Assembly: GCF_039889165.1 (NCBI RefSeq)
Contig: NZ_JAYMYY010000008.1
Span: 82,200 to 146,199, forward strand
From: Pseudocitrobacter cyperus
GTDB taxonomy: Bacteria; Pseudomonadota; Gammaproteobacteria; Enterobacterales; Enterobacteriaceae
Direction of reading: 5' to 3'
Length of the DNA: 64,000 bases
This document shows positions 5,914-55,586 of this stretch, in pieces. Positions within the stretch are counted from its first letter, which is position 1. Each line of letters starts with the position of its first letter. Below the pieces are notes generated by a model. The model saw only the letters and a list, made by a program, of their open reading frames with translations, was not told the DNA's origin and did not search any database. The translations under genes were made by a program, and so were the position numbers.

Positions 5914-6897
5914 ATGGCAACGCGCATTGAATTTGACAAGCATGGCGGCCCCGATGTTCTCAAAGCCGTGGAGTTCACTCCCGCCGATCCCGCCCACCAT
6001 GAAGTGCAGGTCGAAAACAAGGCTATCGGCATAAATTATATTGATACCTATGTCCGCAGCGGCCTCTATCCGCCGCCGTCGCTGCCGAGCGGCCTCGGAA
6101 CGGAAGCGGCTGGGGTGGTCACTAAAATTGGTAAAGATGTCAGGCACGTCAACGTGGGTGATCGCGTGGTTTACGCCCAGTCCTCATCTGGCGCATACAG
6201 CACTGTACATAATGTGGCTGAAGACAAAGTGGCGATATTACCGGACGCTATCTCTTTTGAGCAGGCTGCAGCCTCCTTCCTGAAAGGGCTGACGGTGTTC
6301 TATCTGCTGCGCAAAACCTATGAAATTCAGCCTGATGAGCCGTTTCTTTTCCATGCGGCGGCGGGTGGCGTAGGGCTGATTGCCTGCCAGTGGGCGAAAG
6401 CGCTGGGCGCGAAGTTGATAGGTACCGTCGGTAGCGCGGAGAAAGGCGAACGCGCGCTGAAAGCGGGCGCATGGCAGGTGATTAACTATCGCGATGAAAA
6501 TATCGTTGAGCGCGTAAAAGAGATTACCGGCGGTAAGAAAGTGCGCGTGGTGTATGACTCGGTCGGTAAAGATACCTGGGAGGCGTCGCTGGACTGCCTG
6601 CAACGCCGCGGATTAATGGTGAGTTTCGGTAATTCATCCGGGCCCGTGACGGGTGTGAATCTGGGTATCCTCAACCAGAAAGGCTCGCTGTATGTTACCC
6701 GCCCTTCCCTTTATGGCTACGTGAGCACGCGAGAAGAGCTACAGGAAGCAAGTAATGAGCTGTTCTCATTGATTGCCAGCGGCGTGATTAAAGTGGATGT
6801 GGCGGAAAAACAGAAGTTCAGGCTGACGGATGCAAAGCATGCGCATGAAGTGCTGGAGAGCCGGGCTACGCAGGGGTCAAGTTTGTTGATCCCTTAG
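5914..6897 (+). CDS. qor: NADPH:quinone oxidoreductase Qor (start MATRIEFDKHGG, RBS aggagga)
   Basis: 327 aa MDR-family enzyme; near-identical to E. coli Qor. The ORF-table extension from 5650 overlaps dnaB and is not coding. Confidence 0.95.
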   Translation: MATRIEFDKHGGPDVLKAVEFTPADPAHHEVQVENKAIGINYIDTYVRSGLYPPPSLPSGLGTEAAGVVTKIGKDVRHVNVGDRVVYAQSSSGAYSTVHNVAEDKVAILPDAISFEQAAASFLKGLTVFYLLRKTYEIQPDEPFLFHAAAGGVGLIACQWAKALGAKLIGTVGSAEKGERALKAGAWQVINYRDENIVERVKEITGGKKVRVVYDSVGKDTWEASLDCLQRRGLMVSFGNSSGPVTGVNLGILNQKGSLYVTRPSLYGYVSTREELQEASNELFSLIASGVIKVDVAEKQKFRLTDAKHAHEVLESRATQGSSLLIP

Positions 6898-6905
6898 AAA
6901 AGCTT

Positions 6906-6939
6906 AGGGCTTCCACATGGGAAGCCCTTACTTTTTTTA
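6906..6939 (+). terminator. rho-independent terminator of qor (AGGGCTTCC-acat-GGGAAGCCCT + TACTTTTTTT)
   Basis: Perfect GC-rich hairpin followed by a T-tract. Confidence 0.75.
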
Positions 6940-7062
6940 GTTCGGCTGTATGTAGGGTACAGCTCGATGAATTTGTCAGCGGCGTAATAGTGACAGATTT
7001 ACTACGCGAAACCTATGCCGTTTTATGCAAAATGTCTATTGTGTGACGAACCCCTCAATACC

Positions 7063-7317
7063 TTAGTAACGCCAACGGTTATTACTCCGGTATGCCCGGC
7101 GATACTCGGGAATTTTCGGCGATTTAATCGCCCGAATTACCCACACAACCGCTATCGCCAGCAGCAGCCAGGGCAGCAATTTAATCATCAAAGCAAACAG
7201 ACCGCCGACAAACATCAGCGCCGTGGCGACAAAAAGCGCAGCAATAATGCCCAGTAGTGAAATGCCCGTCACCAGCAGCATCACGAAAAATCCAATCACA
7301 AATAGCAGTTCGAGCAT
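7063..7317 (-). CDS. pspG: phage shock protein G
   Basis: 84 aa double-TM peptide, MLELLFVIGFFVML..., matches E. coli PspG. Confidence 0.9.
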   Translation of the reverse strand: MLELLFVIGFFVMLLVTGISLLGIIAALFVATALMFVGGLFALMIKLLPWLLLAIAVVWVIRAIKSPKIPEYRRAYRSNNRWRY

Positions 7318-7355
7318 GGCTCTCTCCCAAAGATATATTCATTCTCTGTTTGCTA

Positions 7356-7372
7356 TTACAAGATTCATGCCA
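7356..7372 (-). promoter_or_regulatory. sigma54 promoter of pspG (minus strand TGGCAT-gaatc-TTGTA)
   Basis: -24 GG and -12 (T)GT spacing is correct; pspG is a known PspF/sigma54 target in E. coli. Confidence 0.5.
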
Positions 7373-7385
7373 AACTTAAACTATT

Positions 7386-7425
7386 GATTTTAAAAAGACA
7401 CGCCCGGCAACAGTGTGCCGGGCGT
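7386..7425 (-). terminator. rho-independent terminator after dusA (CGCCCGGCACACTGTTGCCGGGCG + TGTCTTTTTAAAA on minus strand)
   Basis: Hairpin plus T-tract read on the minus strand. Confidence 0.65.
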
Positions 7426-7454
7426 GGTGAATTTGACCAGGTTTTAGTGAAATT

Positions 7455-8450
7455 TTAACGCTTGTCAGCAACCAGCTTGAGAGCATGCTCCAGCACGTTA
7501 ATATCCGCCCCGGCTTTGTGGGCGTTTTCACTCAGATAACGACGCCACTGGCGCGCGCCCGGAATGCCCTGGAACAGCCCCAGCATATGGCGGGTGACGT
7601 GGCCCAGATAGGTGCCATTGCTCAGCTCACGCTCAATGTAGGGATACATTGAGCGCACGACCGCAACCGGGTCTACATCCGCACCATCAACACCGAAGAT
7701 TTCACGGTCAACCGTCGCGAGAATGCCGGGGTTCTGATATGCCTCACGCCCCACCATGACGCCGTCCATATACTCCAGATGGCTTTTCGCCTCTTCCAGC
7801 GATTTGATGCCACCATTAATCGACATTGTCAGATGCGGGAAGTCGCGCTTCAGTTGATACACTCGCGGGTAATCCAGCGGGGGGATTTCACGGTTTTCTT
7901 TCGGGCTAAGGCCAGAGAGCCAGGCTTTTCGCGCGTGGATGATAAACATCTCGCACTCGCCGCGCTCGGCGACGGTGTTGATAAAGTCGCAAAGAAATTC
8001 GTAGCTATCCTGATCGTCAATGCCAATCCGGGTTTTCACCGTGACGGGAATCGACACCACATCGCGCATCGCTTTTACGCAGTCGGCCACCAGTTGAGCG
8101 TTCCCCATCAGACAGGCGCCAAACATACCGTTCTGCACACGATCGGACGGACAGCCGACGTTGAGGTTGATTTCGTCATAGCCGCGCGCTTCCGCCAGCT
8201 TCGCACACTGCGCAAGCTGGGCCGGGTCGCTACCGCCAAGCTGCAACGCAACCGGATGCTCTTCCTCGCTATAAGCCAGGTAATCGCCCTTGCCATGAAT
8301 AATCGCCCCGGTAGTGACCATTTCCGTGTACAGCAACGTATGTCGTGACAGTTGACGCAGGAAGTAGCGGCAATGTCTGTCAGTCCAGTCGAGCATCGGC
8401 GCGATAGAGAAACGGTGTGCAGGGAAAACGGCGGACGAAGATTCTGACAT
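7455..8450 (-). CDS. dusA: tRNA-dihydrouridine(20/20a) synthase DusA
   Basis: 331 aa; FMN/TIM-barrel Dus motifs; matches E. coli DusA. Confidence 0.95.
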
Positions 8451-47011: not shown

Positions 47012-47048
47012 AGCGTTCTGGCAACAATTCGCGCCAGAACGCTTTTAC
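47012..47048. terminator. hairpin GCGTTCTGGC-aacaattcgc-GCCAGAACGC + TTTT, between sorE and the convergent TA module
   Basis: 10-bp perfect stem with T-runs on both sides, so bidirectional. Confidence 0.6.
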
Positions 47049-47368
47049 ATCTCACAAAAAATAACTTTTAGTGAACCGCGTACAGCGCTCTGTTTTCCAA
47101 CCACAATCTCAACATCTCGCCCCAGTTTTACCAGGCATTCGAGCATTTTCGCCTCACTAATTCCGCGAAACTGACCTCTCAGTAAATTAGACAATTTAGG
47201 TTGTGTCATACCGAGGATATGTGCGGCCTGCTGTTGGGTTAATCCCTTACGTTGCAGAATTTCACTAATAGCCTGCGCCAACTGCGCTTTCAGTTGCATC
47301 TGTTCGGCATCATGAATACCGAGATCTTCATAAACATTGCCACAGCTAACATCCACATTTTGAGACAT
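47045..47368 (-). CDS. XRE-family HTH antitoxin (HigA-like; start MSQNVDVSCGNVYEDLG)
   Basis: HTH LTQQQAAHILGMTQPKLSNLL; start overlaps the upstream toxin stop by a few nt. The ORF-table N-terminal extension is the toxin's alternate frame. Confidence 0.75.
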   Translation of the reverse strand: MSQNVDVSCGNVYEDLGIHDAEQMQLKAQLAQAISEILQRKGLTQQQAAHILGMTQPKLSNLLRGQFRGISEAKMLECLVKLGRDVEIVVGKQSAVRGSLKVIFCEM

Positions 47369-47369
47369 A

Positions 47370-47717
47370 TCATCCCCCCTGCGCATGGCGTTGAGCGGCC
47401 CTGAGCCGCTGATAAATAAGATCGATTTCCGGTTTTGGCGTGCTGATTCCGGAAGAGGATTTTTTCTGAAATGCGTGTAAGACATACACCGCATTACGCA
47501 AGGTAATGGTATAAACCGCACGCCAGGTATTACCGTGAAAATCTTCCACAACCTCCAGAACACCTGAACCCCCAAAGCCTTTTAGCGGCTTGGCCTGAGG
47601 ATGTCTCTGCCCCTGCTGCGCAAGCCAAAGCGCGTAACCAAAAATATCCTGGACATGCTCCGGCATCGCCTGGAGATCCTTTTTTGACTGTCCGACCCAA
47701 AACAGAGGCTTGCTCAT
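47370..47717 (-). CDS. Gp49-like/HigB-like RelE-superfamily toxin, 115 aa
   Basis: Typical Gp49/HigB features (...RAVYTITLRNAVYVLHAFQKKS...); toxin-first gene order as in HigBA. Confidence 0.7.
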   Translation of the reverse strand: MSKPLFWVGQSKKDLQAMPEHVQDIFGYALWLAQQGQRHPQAKPLKGFGGSGVLEVVEDFHGNTWRAVYTITLRNAVYVLHAFQKKSSSGISTPKPEIDLIYQRLRAAQRHAQGG

Positions 47718-48665: not shown

Positions 48666-50297
48666 CTAATAATCATCCCGTTCGTCATCTTCATCCGGCT
48701 GCTCCAGCACGCTGTAAGCCACCGAGCAGAAGAGCGAGTTAAGACGCTGCATATCGCCCAGCAGGCCAAGGTGCAGCGAGCTGGTTTCAATACTCTGCAC
48801 GTTTTGTTGATGCAGACGATCGACATGCGCGTGCGAGTAGCGGCGATTCAGAATGCGAAAACGATGCTTACTGCGTCGCAGACGACGAGCGCTGGTGACG
48901 TCGCCGGAGAAGAACACCGACATCGCCAGTTGCAGGTTACTCAGCAACTGTTCGTAAAGTGCATCCAGCTCCTTCAACCCTTCAATCGAGAATGCGCGAC
49001 GGGCCGCCAGCGACTTATCGGCAATTTCGCTGCCCATACGCTCCACAATATCTGACGCCTGTTCGAGGTTGAGCGACATCTCGATAATTTCCGCCCAGCG
49101 GCGCGACTCCTCTTCCGCCAGTTCATCCTTTGGCATCCGCGCCAGATAGAGCTTGATGGCGGTGTAGAGCACGTTGATATCATCCGCCAGCTTACGCAGC
49201 TCTTTCTCTTCACGCGGCTCGCCGTGCATCACCTTTTTCAGCCCTTCCAGCATCTGCTCCATCGCGTCGCCGATGCGCAGCGCTTCGCGCGCGGCATTGG
49301 CCAGCGCCAGCGTAGGCGTGTCGAGGGCGGTGGTATCGAGGTGTTTTGGCTTCAGGCGCGCGTCCAGTTCGGGTTCATCGCGAATCATTCGTTTGCAGAA
49401 ACGCGCCATCGGCTCGGCGAATGGAATCATCACCACGCAGCGAATCAGGTTGTAGAAGACGTGGAAATAGATAACCAGTTCCGATTCCGGCAAGGGAAGT
49501 TTCTGCAGCGTATCGGCCAGCACATGGACGAATGGCAGGATAATCAGGCTACCCACCAGCTTAAACAGTAAACTGCCCAGCGCCACGCGGCGGGCCGCCG
49601 CATTGGCCGCGCTGTTGTTGAGCATCGCCAGCAGGCCAGAGCCGAGGTTGGCGCCAATCACCAGACACAGCGCCACCGGGAAAGAAATGATCCCCGCGGT
49701 GGTCAGCGTGGCGGTCAGCAGCACGGCGGCCAGGCTCGAATAACTGATGATGGCGAACATCGCGCCAATCAGCGCATCCAGCATGATATCGCCAGTCAGC
49801 GAAGCGAAAATCACCTGTACGCCGTTGGCCTGGGTGATCGGCGTGACGGCCTGGACGATGAGTTCCAGCGCCAGCAAAATCAGGCCAAGGCCGATACCAA
49901 CACGCCCCAGTTGCCCGGCGCGCGACTGTTTGCGGCCAAGGAAGAAGATCACGCCGATAAAAATCAGCAACGGCGACAGCCAGGATAAATCGAAGGTGAG
50001 GATACGCGCCATCAGCGCCGTCCCCACGTCAGCCCCCAGGACAATCACCAGCGCAGGCGTCAGGGCGACAAGATCCTGGGCGACGAACGACGTCACCAGC
50101 ATGGTCGTGGCGTTACTGCTCTGCACCAGCGCAGTAACGCCAATACCCGCGCAGAAGGCGAGCGGTTTCTTTTCAACACTGCGGCTGAGGACGGTACGCA
50201 GGCGCGCGCCAAAGACGCGCATCACGCCCGTGCGGACAATGTGGGTGCCCCAAACCAGCAGGGCGACAGCGGAAAGCAGGTGTAACAGAGTTAACAC
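48666..50297 (-). CDS. yjbB: Na+/phosphate symporter-family protein YjbB
   Basis: 543 aa; near-identical to E. coli YjbB. Confidence 0.93.
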   Translation of the reverse strand: MLTLLHLLSAVALLVWGTHIVRTGVMRVFGARLRTVLSRSVEKKPLAFCAGIGVTALVQSSNATTMLVTSFVAQDLVALTPALVIVLGADVGTALMARILTFDLSWLSPLLIFIGVIFFLGRKQSRAGQLGRVGIGLGLILLALELIVQAVTPITQANGVQVIFASLTGDIMLDALIGAMFAIISYSSLAAVLLTATLTTAGIISFPVALCLVIGANLGSGLLAMLNNSAANAAARRVALGSLLFKLVGSLIILPFVHVLADTLQKLPLPESELVIYFHVFYNLIRCVVMIPFAEPMARFCKRMIRDEPELDARLKPKHLDTTALDTPTLALANAAREALRIGDAMEQMLEGLKKVMHGEPREEKELRKLADDINVLYTAIKLYLARMPKDELAEEESRRWAEIIEMSLNLEQASDIVERMGSEIADKSLAARRAFSIEGLKELDALYEQLLSNLQLAMSVFFSGDVTSARRLRRSKHRFRILNRRYSHAHVDRLHQQNVQSIETSSLHLGLLGDMQRLNSLFCSVAYSVLEQPDEDDERDDY

Positions 50298-50349: not shown

Positions 50350-50395
50350 TATTGCCTGATGGCGCTTTGCTTATCAAGCCTACAAACCATCCGGC
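50350..50395. repeat. REP-like element (TGCCTGATGGCGCTTTGCTTATCAAGCCTAC-type)
   Basis: Matches the Y-type REP consensus with substitutions. Confidence 0.45.
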
Positions 50396-50521
50396 AGAGA
50401 TCGCTCACGAACCTTCTTTCAGTATAAGGGTTTACGCACAATAAAGAGACAGGACACTCATTGAGTGCCCTGTTAGTTGTAAGGAAAAGTGACTTCACGC
50501 AATATCCGCATAGGAAAATGC

Positions 50522-50971
50522 TTAACCTGCACACCGTCTGTACCACCATAATGTTCCAACCTTGATAAACTCTGAAAAGGTAAAGAGCAAAATTCCGATA
50601 TAGGCTGGATAGCCGGGAATAAAATATAAAACAAAATGAATTATTGATACAGAGCAGGTGAAAGAACATAGTCGTAAAAATTCCTGACACACGAGAAACA
50701 AGACAGGTATTTTTCTTGAGGCGAAAAATAAATAAATTGAACACAAAAGAGAAACATAAAATATAATATTAAAAACAAACATCGCAATAATAAATAGCCC
50801 ACTCCAACCGCCAACATTCATTGACATGAAATTCATCAAAAAATGATGTGTATCGGTATAAAAGGGAATATTCCCACGAAATATTGAAAATCCGACATAG
50901 ATTAATATGGAGATAACATCCATCACGCCCCAAAAGATGTAGATCCTATTTTTTAAATTCATAACATTCAT
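50522..50971 (-). CDS. small integral membrane protein with about 4 TM helices; start uncertain (Met33/36/49 of the 181-aa ORF)
   Basis: Hydrophobic segments IYIFWGVMDVISILIYVGFSIF, GLFIIAMFVFNIIFYVSLLCSIYLFFA, IPVLFLVCQEFLRLCSFTCSVSIIHFVLYFI and AYIGILLFTFSEFIKVGTLWW. AT-rich; overlaps or abuts the upstream gene. Confidence 0.5.
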   Translation of the reverse strand: MNVMNLKNRIYIFWGVMDVISILIYVGFSIFRGNIPFYTDTHHFLMNFMSMNVGGWSGLFIIAMFVFNIIFYVSLLCSIYLFFASRKIPVLFLVCQEFLRLCSFTCSVSIIHFVLYFIPGYPAYIGILLFTFSEFIKVGTLWWYRRCAG

Positions 50972-51755
50972 CGCTAATTGTTGGTATCCAGTGCCAGGAT
51001 TTTCCTTCAGCAGCCCACACATCATCACTTTCAAGATAGCGTTGCGGAATCTCTCTTTGCTCACCATACCGTCTGATCACTGAGCGATTTGAAATGATCT
51101 CTTTATTCTCATTATCAATATACTCAGATAATGGTGACCATATCTGGATCTTATCCCTAATTGTATTCATGAAATCCTTTCCTTCAGACATAAATGGTCT
51201 TCCTTCATCTCCCATAGATGTAGCACGATTGATAGCCATAACTCCTACATTCAATAATGCATGATAATCGTTATCAGTTGTTTGCCAATAACCTGGACCA
51301 TACTCCCGTGTTAATGGAACAAAATTGCTACGCGTTGGTGATGGCTTGCCGTATGCCAGCACCTTCATAGAAAAAGAAATTAAAATATTCTTAATAAATA
51401 AAGAATCATAGACTGCATCATTTACACAAAAAAGTTCTCCATTTTCAGAAATGAAAAAAGGATATCGATAACCATCATCAGCGTCACGCCTTAAATCAAG
51501 TAAGATTAAAAGTCCTCTATCTATATCACTATCTAACTTACTCCAGCTTGATTGGTCATATAGATCATATGAATAATAACTGCGCAAACCATCATTTCTC
51601 TTCAATATATAACCATTCAGAGAACCGACCATCCCACCCAATGATTTTTCCAGGTGAAAAATCTCTTTAATCCGGCGTTTTGCCTGAAGTGGATCAATGA
51701 TATTTTCAAAATCTTTTGGCCTGATATAATCATTTAGTAAATCATAGAGTTCCAT
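50946..51755 (-). CDS. hypothetical soluble protein, 269 aa, no recognised domain, in an AT-rich islet
   Basis: Long ORF in a roughly 33% GC segment; acidic N-terminal half, Trp/Tyr-rich C-terminal half; no TM segment and no catalytic motif recognised. Confidence 0.55.
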   Translation of the reverse strand: MELYDLLNDYIRPKDFENIIDPLQAKRRIKEIFHLEKSLGGMVGSLNGYILKRNDGLRSYYSYDLYDQSSWSKLDSDIDRGLLILLDLRRDADDGYRYPFFISENGELFCVNDAVYDSLFIKNILISFSMKVLAYGKPSPTRSNFVPLTREYGPGYWQTTDNDYHALLNVGVMAINRATSMGDEGRPFMSEGKDFMNTIRDKIQIWSPLSEYIDNENKEIISNRSVIRRYGEQREIPQRYLESDDVWAAEGKSWHWIPTISDECYEFKK

Positions 51756-51902
51756 ATATTCATCAATAACACATATTAATTTATTTATGAATTATGAAGA
51801 TACACCACCTTTTTAATAAAAAATATATTCAATCACTCATTTAGCGATAAGGACGGTTGCCTTTCAAAAAAATTCCTCCAGCCAAAAGCCGGGGGGAGTA
51901 AG

Positions 51903-54900
51903 TTAATCCGCGTCATACCCCAGATTCGGGGCCAGCCAGCGTTCGACTTCTTCTACGCTCATCCCTTTACGACGGGCATAATCTTCTACCTGGTCGCGCT
52001 GGATTTGCGCGACTGCGTAGTATTTGCTGTCAGGGTGGCTGAAGTACCACCCTGAAACCGACGCGCCAGGCCACATGGCGAAGGATTCCGTCAGCTTCAT
52101 GCCGGTGTGTTTTTCCACGTCCAGCAGTTCCCAGATGGTGCCTTTTTCCGTATGTTCCGGGCAGGCCGGATAGCCCGGAGCCGGGCGAATGCCCTGATAG
52201 TTTTCGCGGATCAGTTCTTCGTTGCTGAGGTTTTCGTTTGGCGCATAACCCCAGTAAACTTTACGTACACGTTCATGCAGATATTCTGCAAAGGCTTCCG
52301 CCAGACGGTCGGCAAGCGCTTTGATCATAATCTTGTTGTAGTCATCGTGCTGCGCTTCGAAGGCATCGGCCAGCGCGTCCTCTTCCAGCCCGCCGGTGAC
52401 GGCAAACGCACCGATGTAATCCTCTTTCCCACTCAATTTCGGCGCGACGAAGTCAGAGAGGCAGTAGTTAGCGAAGCCGACTTTTTCCGTCTGCTGGCGC
52501 AAATGACGGCTGACGGTGAGCACGTGAGTACGCGTTTCATCACGGTAGATTTCAATATCATCGCCCACACGATTCGCCGGGAACAGGCCAACCACACCAC
52601 GCGGGTTAAGTGATTTTTCTGCGCTGATTTTATCGAGCATCTCATTGGCGTCTTTAAACAGACGCTGAGCCTCTTCCCCCACAACGTCATCTTCCAGAAT
52701 ACGCGGATATTTACCGGCCAGCGACCAGGTCATAAAGAACGGCGTCCAGTCGATGTAGTTGCGCAGCGTTTCGATGCTGGCTTCCACTTCCTGCACGCCG
52801 AGACGGTGGGCCACCGGCGGCGTGTAGCTCGCCCAGTCAAACGCCAGATCGTTTTCACGCGCGGCCTGCAAGGTCACTGGCGGCGTGCGCGGTTTCTTAC
52901 GCCCGTGCTGAATACGCACGGTCTCGTACTCTTTACGCGTGCGGGCGACAAAGTCGTCACGCTGGGTATCGGAAAGCAGCGCCGCAACCACACCCACGGT
53001 GCGCGAGGCGTTCTGCACATACACCGTCGGGCCGCTGTAGTTCTGCTCGATTTTCACCGCCGTATGCGCTTTCGAGGTGGTCGCGCCGCCAATCAGCAGC
53101 GGGATGGTGAAGCCCTGACGCTCCATCTCCTTCGCCACGTTAACCATTTCGTCGAGCGATGGGGTAATCAAGCCCGAAAGGCCGATGAGATCAGCGTTCA
53201 CTTCTTTGGCGGTTTTGAGAATTTTATCGGCGGGCACCATCACGCCCAGGTCGATGATTTCGTAGTTGTTGCACTGCAACACCACGCCGACGATATTTTT
53301 GCCGATATCATGGACATCACCTTTAACGGTGGCGATCACCATCTTACCGTTGCTGGAGCCTTTCTCTTTGCTGGCTTCAATGTACGGCTCAAGGTAAGCC
53401 ACAGCTTGTTTCATAACGCGCGCCGATTTCACCACCTGCGGCAGGAACATTTTACCTTCGCCAAACAGATCGCCGACCACGTTCATGCCGTCCATCAGCG
53501 GGCCTTCGATCACTTCAATCGGGCGCGTTGCCTGCTGGCGTGCTTCTTCGGTGTCCAGCTCGATAAATTCGGTAATGCCTTTCACCAGCGAATATTCGAG
53601 GCGTTTTTTCACGTCCCAGGAACGCCATTCGGCCTGCTGGGCGTTGGCGGTGTCGTCGGTTTTGCTGCCGCGATATTTCTCGGCGAGATCCAGCAAACGC
53701 TCGGTACCGTCATCACGGCGGTTGAGGATCACGTCTTCTACCGCGTCGCGCAGTTCTGCGGGCAAGTCGTCGTAAATCGCCAGTTGCCCGGCGTTGACAA
53801 TCCCCATATCCATGCCGTTGCGGATGGCGTAGTAGAGGAACACGGCATGGATTGCCTCACGCACCGGGTCATTGCCGCGGAACGAGAATGACACGTTGGA
53901 GACGCCGCCGGAGATCAGCGCATGCGGCAGCTCGCGTTTGATGTCTTCACAGGCGCCGATAAAGTCCTGCGCGTAGTTGTTGTGCTCTTCAATCCCGGTT
54001 GCTACTGCGAAAATATTCGGGTCGAAGATGATATCTTCCGGCGGGAAACCAACTTCCTCAGTGAGAATTTTGTACGCCCGGCGGCATATCTCGATTTTGC
54101 GCGCGCGGGTATCGGCCTGGCCCTGTTCGTCAAAGGCCATCACCACCACCGCCGCGCCGTAGCGACGCAGCAGTTTGGCATGGTGGATAAAGGTTTCTAC
54201 GCCCTCTTTCATTGAGATGGAGTTAACAATGCCTTTACCCTGAATGCACTTCAGGCCTTTTTCGATGACGTCCCATTTCGAGGAGTCGATCATGATCGGT
54301 ACGCGGGCGATATCCGGTTCGCCGGCAATCAGGTTGAGGAAACGCACCATCGCCGCTTCGGCATCGAGCATCCCCTCATCCATGTTGATGTCGATAATCT
54401 GCGCGCCGCTTTCCACCTGCTGGCGCGCCACATCCAGCGCTTCGCTGTATTTCTCTTCTTTAATCAGGCGCTTGAATTTAGCGGAACCGGTGACGTTGGT
54501 GCGTTCGCCGACGTTCACAAACAGGCTGTCGTCGCCAATATTCAGCGGTTCCAGGCCAGACAAACGGCAGGCGACAGGCAGTTCAGGCAACTTGCGTGGC
54601 GGCAGCCCGGCAACGGCACGGCTCATCGCCGCAATGTGTTCCGGCGTGGTGCCGCAGCAACCGCCGACGATATTGAGGAAGCCCGCTTCCGCCCATTCGC
54701 GGATCTGTTTTGCCATGGTGTCGGCATCAAGATCGTATTCGCCAAAGGCGTTTGGCAGCCCGGCGTTGGGGTGCGCGGTGACGTAGCACTCCGCAATACG
54801 CGACAGTTCCTGTACGTACTGGCGTAGTTCATCCGGCCCCAGCGCGCAGTTCAGGCCGAAAGTAAGCGCGTCGGCGTGGCGCAGGGAGTTATAAAACGCT

Positions 54901-55586
54901 TCGGTGGTTTGCCCGGAGAGCGTGCGCCCGGAGGCATCGGTGATGGTGCCGGAAATCATGATCGGCAGGTCAACGCCCAGCGCTTCAAACTCTTCTTTTA
55001 CCGCAAAAATCGCCGCTTTGGCGTTCAGGGTGTCGAAAACGGTTTCAATCAGGATCAGGTCGGCGCCGCCTTCCACCAGCGCTTTCGTCGATTCCCGGTA
55101 TGCGGCCACCAGCCCATCAAAGGTGATATTGCGGAATGCCGGGTCGTTGACGTCCGGTGAGATGGACGCCGTGCGGTTGGTGGGGCCGAGTACGCCAGCC
55201 ACGTAGCGCGGTTTCTCCGGGGTGCGCGCAGTCCATTCATCGGCACAGGCACGCGCGAGTTTCGCCGCCGCAAAGTTAATTTCCGCCGACAGGGATTCCA
55301 TCTGGTAATCCGCCATCGCGATGGTCGTGGAGTTGAAGGTGTTGGTTTCGATGATATCCGCGCCCGCTTCGAAGTAGGCATCATGAATGGCGGAGATCAC
55401 CTCCGGCTTGCTGAGCACCAGCAGGTCGTTGTTACCTTTGAGATCGCACGGCCAGTCGGCGAAACGCGCGCCGCGGAAATCGTCTTCACTCAGACGATAG
55501 CTCTGGATCATGGTGCCCATGCCCCCGTCCAGAACCAGAATTCGATCATTTAACTGCTGACGTAATTGTTCAACTTTGCTGCTCAC
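51903..55586 (-). CDS. metH: cobalamin-dependent methionine synthase MetH
   Basis: 1227 aa; near-identical to E. coli MetH (Hcy-binding, pterin-binding, B12 DxHxxG and AdoMet domains). Confidence 0.98.

Follow-up and report, generated by a model that had tools for sequence, protein, structure and literature searches.

A two-gene islet between metH and yjbB of Pseudocitrobacter cyperus, a probable orphan type VI secretion effector-immunity cassette

The junction between metH and yjbB was investigated in a stretch of 64,000 nucleotides from Pseudocitrobacter cyperus (contig NZ_JAYMYY010000008.1, positions 82,200 to 146,199; this whole stretch is referred to as the window), where two additional genes, here named g1 and g2, were located. 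On the minus strand the gene order is metH, g1, g2, yjbB. The intergenic gap between metH (51903-55586, minus strand) and yjbB (48666-50297, minus strand) measures 1,605 bp, compared with 219 bp in Escherichia coli K-12. A preliminary inspection of the letters alone, hereafter the sequence-only reading, had stated that the two genes are essentially adjacent in K-12 and that an AT-rich, compositionally foreign two-gene insert parts them here, and both statements were borne out. The guanine-plus-cytosine (GC) content of the insert was 0.348, against 0.571 for metH and 0.590 for yjbB; along the islet it ranged from 0.31 to 0.39 and in both flanks from 0.55 to 0.63. The islet is probably an orphan type VI secretion system (T6SS) effector-immunity cassette, in which the toxin would be encoded by g1 and the matching immunity protein by g2. 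The principal features are as follows.

50494..51902 (approximate), minus strand: insert of ~1.41 kb, flanked by the stop codon of metH and the conserved terminator sequence downstream of metH
50946..51755, minus strand: g1, an open reading frame (ORF) of 269 amino acids, predicted T6SS cargo effector (DUF8093 family)
51315..51755, minus strand: N-terminal domain of g1 (residues 1-147), family-specific
50949..51299, minus strand: predicted C-terminal toxin core of g1 (residues 153-269), beginning at the GPGxW motif and reaching the protein end
50522..50971, minus strand: g2, 149 amino acids, likely start ATG at 50971, alternative ATG at 50962

The product of g1 had been described as a soluble 269-amino-acid protein that matched no functionally described family, and this description stands. 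No transmembrane (TM)-grade segment was detected (maximum 19-residue Kyte-Doolittle score of 1.22), and neither g1 nor g2 had a meaningful match in Pfam, PADLOC, NCBIfam or PHROGs; matches to IFT20 and DUF2070 were far below the cut-offs and were rejected. Among 5.8 billion proteins 28 relatives of g1 were found, nearly all with the precomputed annotation PF26362 (DUF8093, a domain of unknown function), and those with organism names were mostly from Enterobacteriaceae (Kosakonia, Trabulsiella, Superficieibacter, Enterobacter), plus Affinibrenneria. The annotation is carried by homologues from 45 to 94% identical to g1. PF26362 was unmatched by g1 itself in the local copy of Pfam, which was assumed to be older than the model, and g1 very likely belongs to this family. 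The database names of these proteins are all 'hypothetical protein'.

The region that g1 shares with other proteins begins at the GPGxW motif (residue 153) and extends to the C-terminus. Many polar and tryptophan residues within this core are nearly invariant, five tryptophans being conserved, and the conserved motifs include NRxTSMGDEGR, SxGKD and GKSWHW. D183, R186, K193, D194, R200, E242 and D245 are examples of invariant positions. The N-terminal domain was more variable than the C-terminal domain (nonsynonymous substitutions per site, dN, 0.127 against 0.031), and an exhaustive phmmer search of 1.84 billion representatives with it returned only eight matches, all from its own family or fragments thereof; at the sequence level it is, on this evidence, not a widely shuffled delivery domain. 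A weak tblastn extension over residues 90-147 in some VgrG fusions fell on the pre-toxin segment of those VgrGs, which we read as a TTR-like region, and was excluded from the core. AlphaFold2 produced a confident two-domain alpha/beta model of g1 from a 63-sequence alignment (predicted local distance difference test score, pLDDT, 85.5; predicted template modelling score, pTM, 0.79), and the toxin domain alone was modelled from 72 sequences with a pLDDT of 87.8. The hydrophobic helical hairpin or TM-grade segment expected of a pore-former was absent, the domain being alpha/beta in the model. Structural comparison had been proposed in the sequence-only reading as a means of placing the protein; the model was obtained with confidence, and no analogue of the toxin-domain fold was found in the PDB. 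Profile searches against PDB sequences gave only noise-level matches, to TRF2 Myb domains, which were discarded.

The frames of g1 and g2 overlap by 26 or 17 nucleotides, depending on the g2 start, which agrees with the earlier description of genes that overlap or abut and suggests translational coupling. The ATG at 50971 is taken as the likely start because the resulting length matches that of a homologue, P0029 (149 amino acids, 95% identical to g2), which has the same length and start. Hydropathy peaks were found at residues ~11-31 and ~56-84, together with a broad hydrophobic stretch at ~86-136 which we read as fitting two more TM helices, giving a probable total of four; the four predicted helices of the sequence-only reading are consistent with this profile. 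The positive-inside rule predicts that both termini are cytoplasmic, in which case the conserved GRIPxxxD loop would be periplasmic. A word-based protein search with g2 returned P0029 as the sole match, and further homologues were recovered from the DNA downstream of toxin loci. The resulting 55-sequence alignment displayed the family motifs FWGxxD (TM1), GRIPxxxD (first loop), QxxR, PS/CS-x-S and SExxK (TM4), and D18, Q94, R97, E132 and K135 are examples of invariant residues in g2.

The C-terminal part of g1 was found repeatedly at the ends of T6SS spike proteins. Residues 148-269 were 58-60% identical to the extreme C-termini of two VgrG-type proteins, P0027, which carries a Gp5 trimerisation domain, and P0028, which carries DUF2345. 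A profile search enlarged the toxin-core set to 94 proteins, many annotated as VgrG and two as PAAR. One genome per species was then scanned, giving 56 loci, and the match-bearing ORF was extracted from each. Stand-alone toxin proteins of 266-288 amino acids, as called, were present at 20 of these loci (the 288-residue call, at L024, is probably inflated by an upstream alternative start), and at most of the others the domain formed the C-terminus of proteins of ~830-1,100 amino acids. By Pfam scan, nine of ten long carriers were complete VgrGs (Phage_GPD and Phage_base_V with T6SS_Vgr/DUF2345 or Gp5_trimer_C). PAAR fusions were represented by L044, P0059 and P0061, no TM-grade segment being found in the two PAAR-fused forms examined, and the shorter carriers also included VgrG fragments. 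No secretion-related carrier domain other than VgrG and PAAR was seen; several matches had unannotated N-termini, for example Pseudomonas proteins of 217-239 amino acids and the 807-amino-acid protein of L034. The PF26362 call is mostly missing on the VgrG- and PAAR-fused carriers, and the Pfam entry seems to be centred on the stand-alone form. Members of the family were distributed among Enterobacterales, Pseudomonas, Stutzerimonas and Lysobacteraceae, with further matches labelled Burkholderia and Marinobacter.

In Pseudomonas sp. 286 (L033, and L034 at 5964-8387) the toxin core ends an 807-amino-acid protein with a weak SH3_3 match only and no VgrG or PAAR Pfam domain, which may represent a different carrier or delivery domain. 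Three other Pseudomonas loci (L056, L053 and L048) encode stand-alone toxin proteins of 217-253 amino acids, whose N-termini showed a faint likeness to the g1 N-terminal domain in a MAFFT alignment that was not significant; the pairs at L056 and L053 are orphan in appearance, with no vgrG adjoining.

A small membrane-protein gene directly follows the toxin core almost everywhere, whichever protein carries the core. At 54 of the 56 loci an ORF of 134-161 amino acids abuts or overlaps the toxin stop codon, and at least two TM segments were predicted in 53 of these 54 partners; at the remaining one (L039) the ORF picked by the script had none, and a tblastn match to g2 lay there in another frame. 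Homology to g2 was detectable by tblastn at 32 loci, including VgrG-fused loci of Serratia and Pseudomonas and the single PAAR-fused locus of Lysobacteraceae. The aligned partners contained no sizeable soluble domain. Mean identity was 61% for the toxin core against 37% for the partner, and the pairwise identities of the two were correlated (Spearman 0.59), which argues that core and partner travel as a unit.

The partner gene was also met without an intact g1, singly or in tandem array, as is typical of immunity genes. At the metH-yjbB junction of Enterobacter sp. ENT03 (L040) g1 has been cut to its last 88 codons and g2 is intact. A metagenome-assembled genome of Pseudescherichia (L052, 8266-9784) holds a truncated g1 remnant followed by three tandem g2 paralogues.

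In some genera the pair lies within a T6SS cluster. Genomes of the Enterobacter ludwigii type carry a 267-amino-acid g1 homologue and a 146-amino-acid partner inside the main cluster, where tssE-tssF-tssG-tssH-ppkA precede the pair and vgrG follows it immediately; PAAR-Rhs and further effector genes lie downstream. In E. coli KOEGE 71 a VgrG within tssK-tssL-tagL-hcp-clpV-vgrG ... PAAR-tssM terminates in the domain, and a 143-amino-acid partner follows. That VgrG is split by a frameshift into products of 524 and 267 amino acids (L065, 6191-9232), and the KOEGE 71 toxin-immunity segment was present in no complete RefSeq E. coli genome at the megablast level. In Trabulsiella the pair is again an orphan, its islet having a GSDH-family gene on one side and yliH on the other, and no T6SS linkage was seen there.

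These data suggest an effector-immunity pair, because the core is fused to VgrG and PAAR, its partner is nearly constant, the genes lie in T6SS clusters in some genera and the partner occurs alone or arrayed; these four lines are the accepted signature of such a pair in the T6SS. On this interpretation g1 would be a cargo effector whose N-terminal domain (residues 1-147) mediates loading onto the VgrG/PAAR spike, and its C-terminal toxin domain of ~118 residues would be a modular unit that elsewhere is fused directly to VgrG or PAAR. The cognate immunity protein would be g2, situated in the inner membrane with approximately four TM helices. The host T6SS would secrete g1, which would be toxic to the recipient unless neutralised by g2. 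The sequence-only reading had listed a toxin/immunity pair among its options, and the spike fusions and partner synteny point to this as the right class.

Several observations weigh against this interpretation. There are no T6SS structural genes within the 64-kb window, although orphan pairs are common among T6SS effector-immunity systems. No recognised T6SS loading marker was found in the N-terminal domain of g1. The toxin domain matched no known toxin family or fold, and we infer toxicity from the architecture of the carriers. Searches of the literature by DUF name, accessions and topic yielded no publication on DUF8093 or these proteins and no experimental data on any member; the domains described in the T6SS effector surveys consulted are others than that of g1. 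Finally, the modelled hydrophilic alpha/beta domain is unlike that of classical pore-formers, which leaves the suggestion of a membrane target a weak one. The toxin and immunity families are uncharacterised; the kind of system to which they are assigned is already well known.

With regard to the mode of action, we give about even odds to a model in which the toxin attacks the inner membrane, or a target embedded in the membrane or linked to lipid, from the periplasmic face and is blocked by g2 in the plane of the membrane. This suggestion is made because all partners examined were small and largely hydrophobic with at least two predicted TM segments, because the two PAAR-fused forms lacked TM segments, and because the toxin core is rich in conserved tryptophan. 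TM segments in PAAR effectors are associated with crossing of the inner membrane. A more speculative extension, which we put forward tentatively and regard as somewhat improbable, is that the C-terminal domain of g1 represents a structurally novel T6SS toxin that acts at the inner membrane in a new way, for example by attacking a membrane-embedded or lipid-linked target, and is neutralised in the bilayer by a dedicated four-TM immunity protein, and that a lone g2 homologue in E. coli, described below, is a functional shield.

The history of the islet was assessed by comparison of the metH-yjbB junction across genera, as the sequence-only reading had recommended. The junction was found empty as in K-12, or holding g1-g2, a truncated g1 with g2, or g2 only. 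In Pseudocitrobacter faecalis the pair occupies the same junction, with g1 84% and g2 89% identical and the flanking proteins 97-99% identical. About a dozen genomes of the Kosakonia type have the pair at this position too (g1 ~47%, g2 ~40% and flanks 90-95% identical). Two loci, labelled 'Vagococcus sp. WN89Y' (L004) and 'Salmonella enterica strain s1' (L008), show a Kosakonia-like arrangement of iclR-metH-g1-g2-yjbB with flanking proteins 90-94% identical to those of the window, and these labels look like misidentification or contamination.

The islet had no megablast match in 5,426 complete E. coli genomes, and a K-12-type empty junction was present in 4,292 of them. In a further 1,133 (21%) a 1.04-kb insert of 34% GC lies between metH and yjbB, encoding a 149-amino-acid g2 homologue (36% identity, E 5e-27) with no g1 homologue beside it. 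Upstream of the g2 homologue the insert also encodes an unrelated hypothetical protein of 106 amino acids without a Pfam match, which is possibly another orphan immunity gene. The example from the uropathogenic E. coli (UPEC) strain F11 is located as follows.

L062 2495-3536 (NZ_CP076123.1): metH-yjbB insert of E. coli F11 (UPEC)

Between the window and P. faecalis, synonymous substitutions per site (dS) were 0.49 for g1 and 0.23 for g2, compared with 0.55 for metH and 0.45 for yjbB. The corresponding dN values were 0.082 and 0.049 against 0.007 and 0.005, 7-16 times higher in the islet, and the dN/dS ratios were 0.17 for g1 and 0.22 for g2. From a dS comparable in magnitude to that of the flanks, a raised dN and a low dN/dS, it follows that the islet has probably been co-inherited with its flanks and that its proteins are constrained and fast-changing. 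Both genes are, by these ratios, real and under purifying selection. The islet resembles neither a pseudogene nor a recent arrival, and the pseudogene-type decay that the sequence-only reading had named as a possible objection was not seen in the comparison with P. faecalis.

Three other explanations were considered. The first, which is unlikely and survives best, is that the cassette is a stranded relic in this host, kept for the protection that g2 affords against the toxin of neighbours or as a selfish addiction pair while g1 is no longer delivered by any T6SS. The absence of T6SS genes from the window, the location of the pair at a housekeeping junction and the relatives that have lost g1 yet retain g2 would all suit a relic. 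T6SSs have, however, been reported in Kosakonia (PMC6125372). In addition, an undamaged g1 is present in the window, in P. faecalis and at all 13 Kosakonia-type junction loci having a full-length copy, and its purifying selection across a dS of ~0.5 argues that g1 itself is used.

A second and very unlikely explanation reverses the roles, g2 being a membrane-inserting T6SS effector and the soluble domain, attached to VgrG or PAAR, carrying it as a chaperone or adaptor. Chaperones for TM-containing T6SS effectors exist, the Eag family being such a group, and no fold of toxin type was matched by the soluble domain. However, g2 is almost wholly hydrophobic, with approximately four TM helices and no soluble toxin domain, and its occurrence alone or in tandem, partnerless in ~21% of E. 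coli, is the signature of an immunity gene. The soluble domain is also the better conserved of the two, as is usual for a toxin relative to its immunity protein, and it occupies the C-terminal toxin position of evolved VgrG and PAAR proteins.

The weakest alternative, to which we attach scarcely any probability, is the anti-phage abortive-infection or defence module favoured by the sequence-only reading, with g1 as cytosolic sensor or enzyme and g2 as the membrane effector that kills the infected cell: a foreign insert encoding a soluble protein and a small multi-TM protein fits it, and pairs of this shape occur among defence systems, but the defence-database scan which that reading had called for found no family for g1 or g2 in PADLOC-DB v2 at E <= 10, PHROGs gave none either, nothing would explain the fusion of a phage sensor to VgrG/PAAR spikes, the pair lies inside T6SS clusters (Enterobacter, E. 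coli KOEGE 71), and a membrane gene kept alone or arrayed without its 'sensor' suits an immunity gene and not a suicide effector. The roles proposed in that reading are the reverse of those suggested here.

Considered as an effector-immunity cassette, the pair may be compared with several known systems. It resembles evolved VgrG/PAAR effectors and vgrG-adjacent cargo effectors in that the same core occurs fused or stand-alone with a small downstream partner each time; it differs in that the toxin domain has no described family or solved fold and the window copy lies far from T6SS genes. VasX/TsiV2, Tse5/Tsi5 and Tme/Tmi are membrane-targeting T6SS effectors with integral-membrane immunity proteins. 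They share with g1-g2 a small multi-TM immunity protein, which implies toxin action at or in the inner membrane, although these toxins have hydrophobic or colicin-like helical segments whereas the core of g1 is hydrophilic and alpha/beta, and no sequence or fold similarity to g1-g2 was found. The colicin A immunity protein Cai is a four-TM protein of the inner membrane. Immunity proteins of pore-forming colicins are like g2 in length (~150 amino acids), in their four TM helices and in the position of their genes beside that of the toxin; they are not homologous, and delivery of g1 is predicted to be by the T6SS spike, to which its core is elsewhere fused, and not by colicin receptor and translocation domains.

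A further comparison is with T6EC1/T6IC1, a bioinformatically discovered T6SS pair composed of a DUF3289 toxin and a membrane-anchored DUF943 immunity protein (bioRxiv 10.1101/2023.03.26.534264). In both systems a DUF-type toxin occurs on an evolved PAAR, the gene directly behind it is a membrane-associated immunity gene, and that gene is tandemly duplicated to a variable extent. The domains differ: T6EC1 is structurally colicin M-like, whereas the g1 domain has no structural match, and T6IC1 has one membrane anchor against four TM helices in g2.

The edges of the insert were located by comparing the metH-yjbB junction of K-12 with the window by blastn. Homology to K-12 ended at the metH 3' end and restarted at ~50493 with the sequence GTCACTTTTCCTTACAAC, followed by the hairpin ACAGGGCxCTCAATGAGTGxCCTGT. 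The following features lie at or near these edges.

51878..51892, minus strand: terminator-like hairpin with T-run (terminator scan), directly after metH on the islet side
50449..50473, minus strand: hairpin (terminator scan), which with its 5' flank aligns to the K-12 sequence directly after metH
50354-50383, plus strand: repetitive extragenic palindromic (REP)-like unit, single copy in the window, in the core upstream region (leader) of yjbB

The hairpin at 50449-50473 is read as core DNA because of this alignment to post-metH sequence of K-12. It would be the original terminator of metH, is situated immediately beyond the insert, and now appears to be placed where it would end transcription of g1-g2. 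At the post-metH position the other islet-bearing lineages differ from one another in the GC-rich palindrome that precedes the T-run, the hairpins at the E. coli F11, Kosakonia and Enterobacter ENT03 junctions having been identified by eye. The sequence-only reading had taken a stem-loop and a REP-like element to mark the distal edge of the islet, which was not upheld, both lying in core DNA. The REP-like unit was ruled out as a boundary since it is single-copy and in core DNA, and its match to the canonical REP tail was of borderline significance relative to chance (expected 0.27). The insert edges showed no target-site duplication.

A second small islet is situated nearby, in the sorE-pepE gap (47045-47717, minus strand), a gap of only ~380 bp in E. 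coli F11. It has a GC content of 0.45-0.50 and consists of a type II toxin-antitoxin pair.

47370-47717, minus strand: toxin, Gp49/HigB-like (PF05973, E 2e-21)
47045-47368, minus strand: antitoxin, HTH_37 (PF13744, E 1e-28)

The assignment of g1 and g2 to a T6SS effector-immunity cassette offers, for DUF8093 and for a widespread, unannotated four-TM family, a function that can be tested, and removes a false lead from screens for phage defence. It identifies metH-yjbB as a long-lived home of this cassette across genera. As the effector family is without a known fold or chemistry, its characterisation could reveal a new antibacterial target. Approximately one fifth of complete E. coli genomes, UPEC F11 included, retain only the immunity-type gene, which is relevant to competition between strains in the gut; if the lone g2 homologue of E. 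coli does act as a shield, it would shape who kills whom among gut Enterobacteriaceae.

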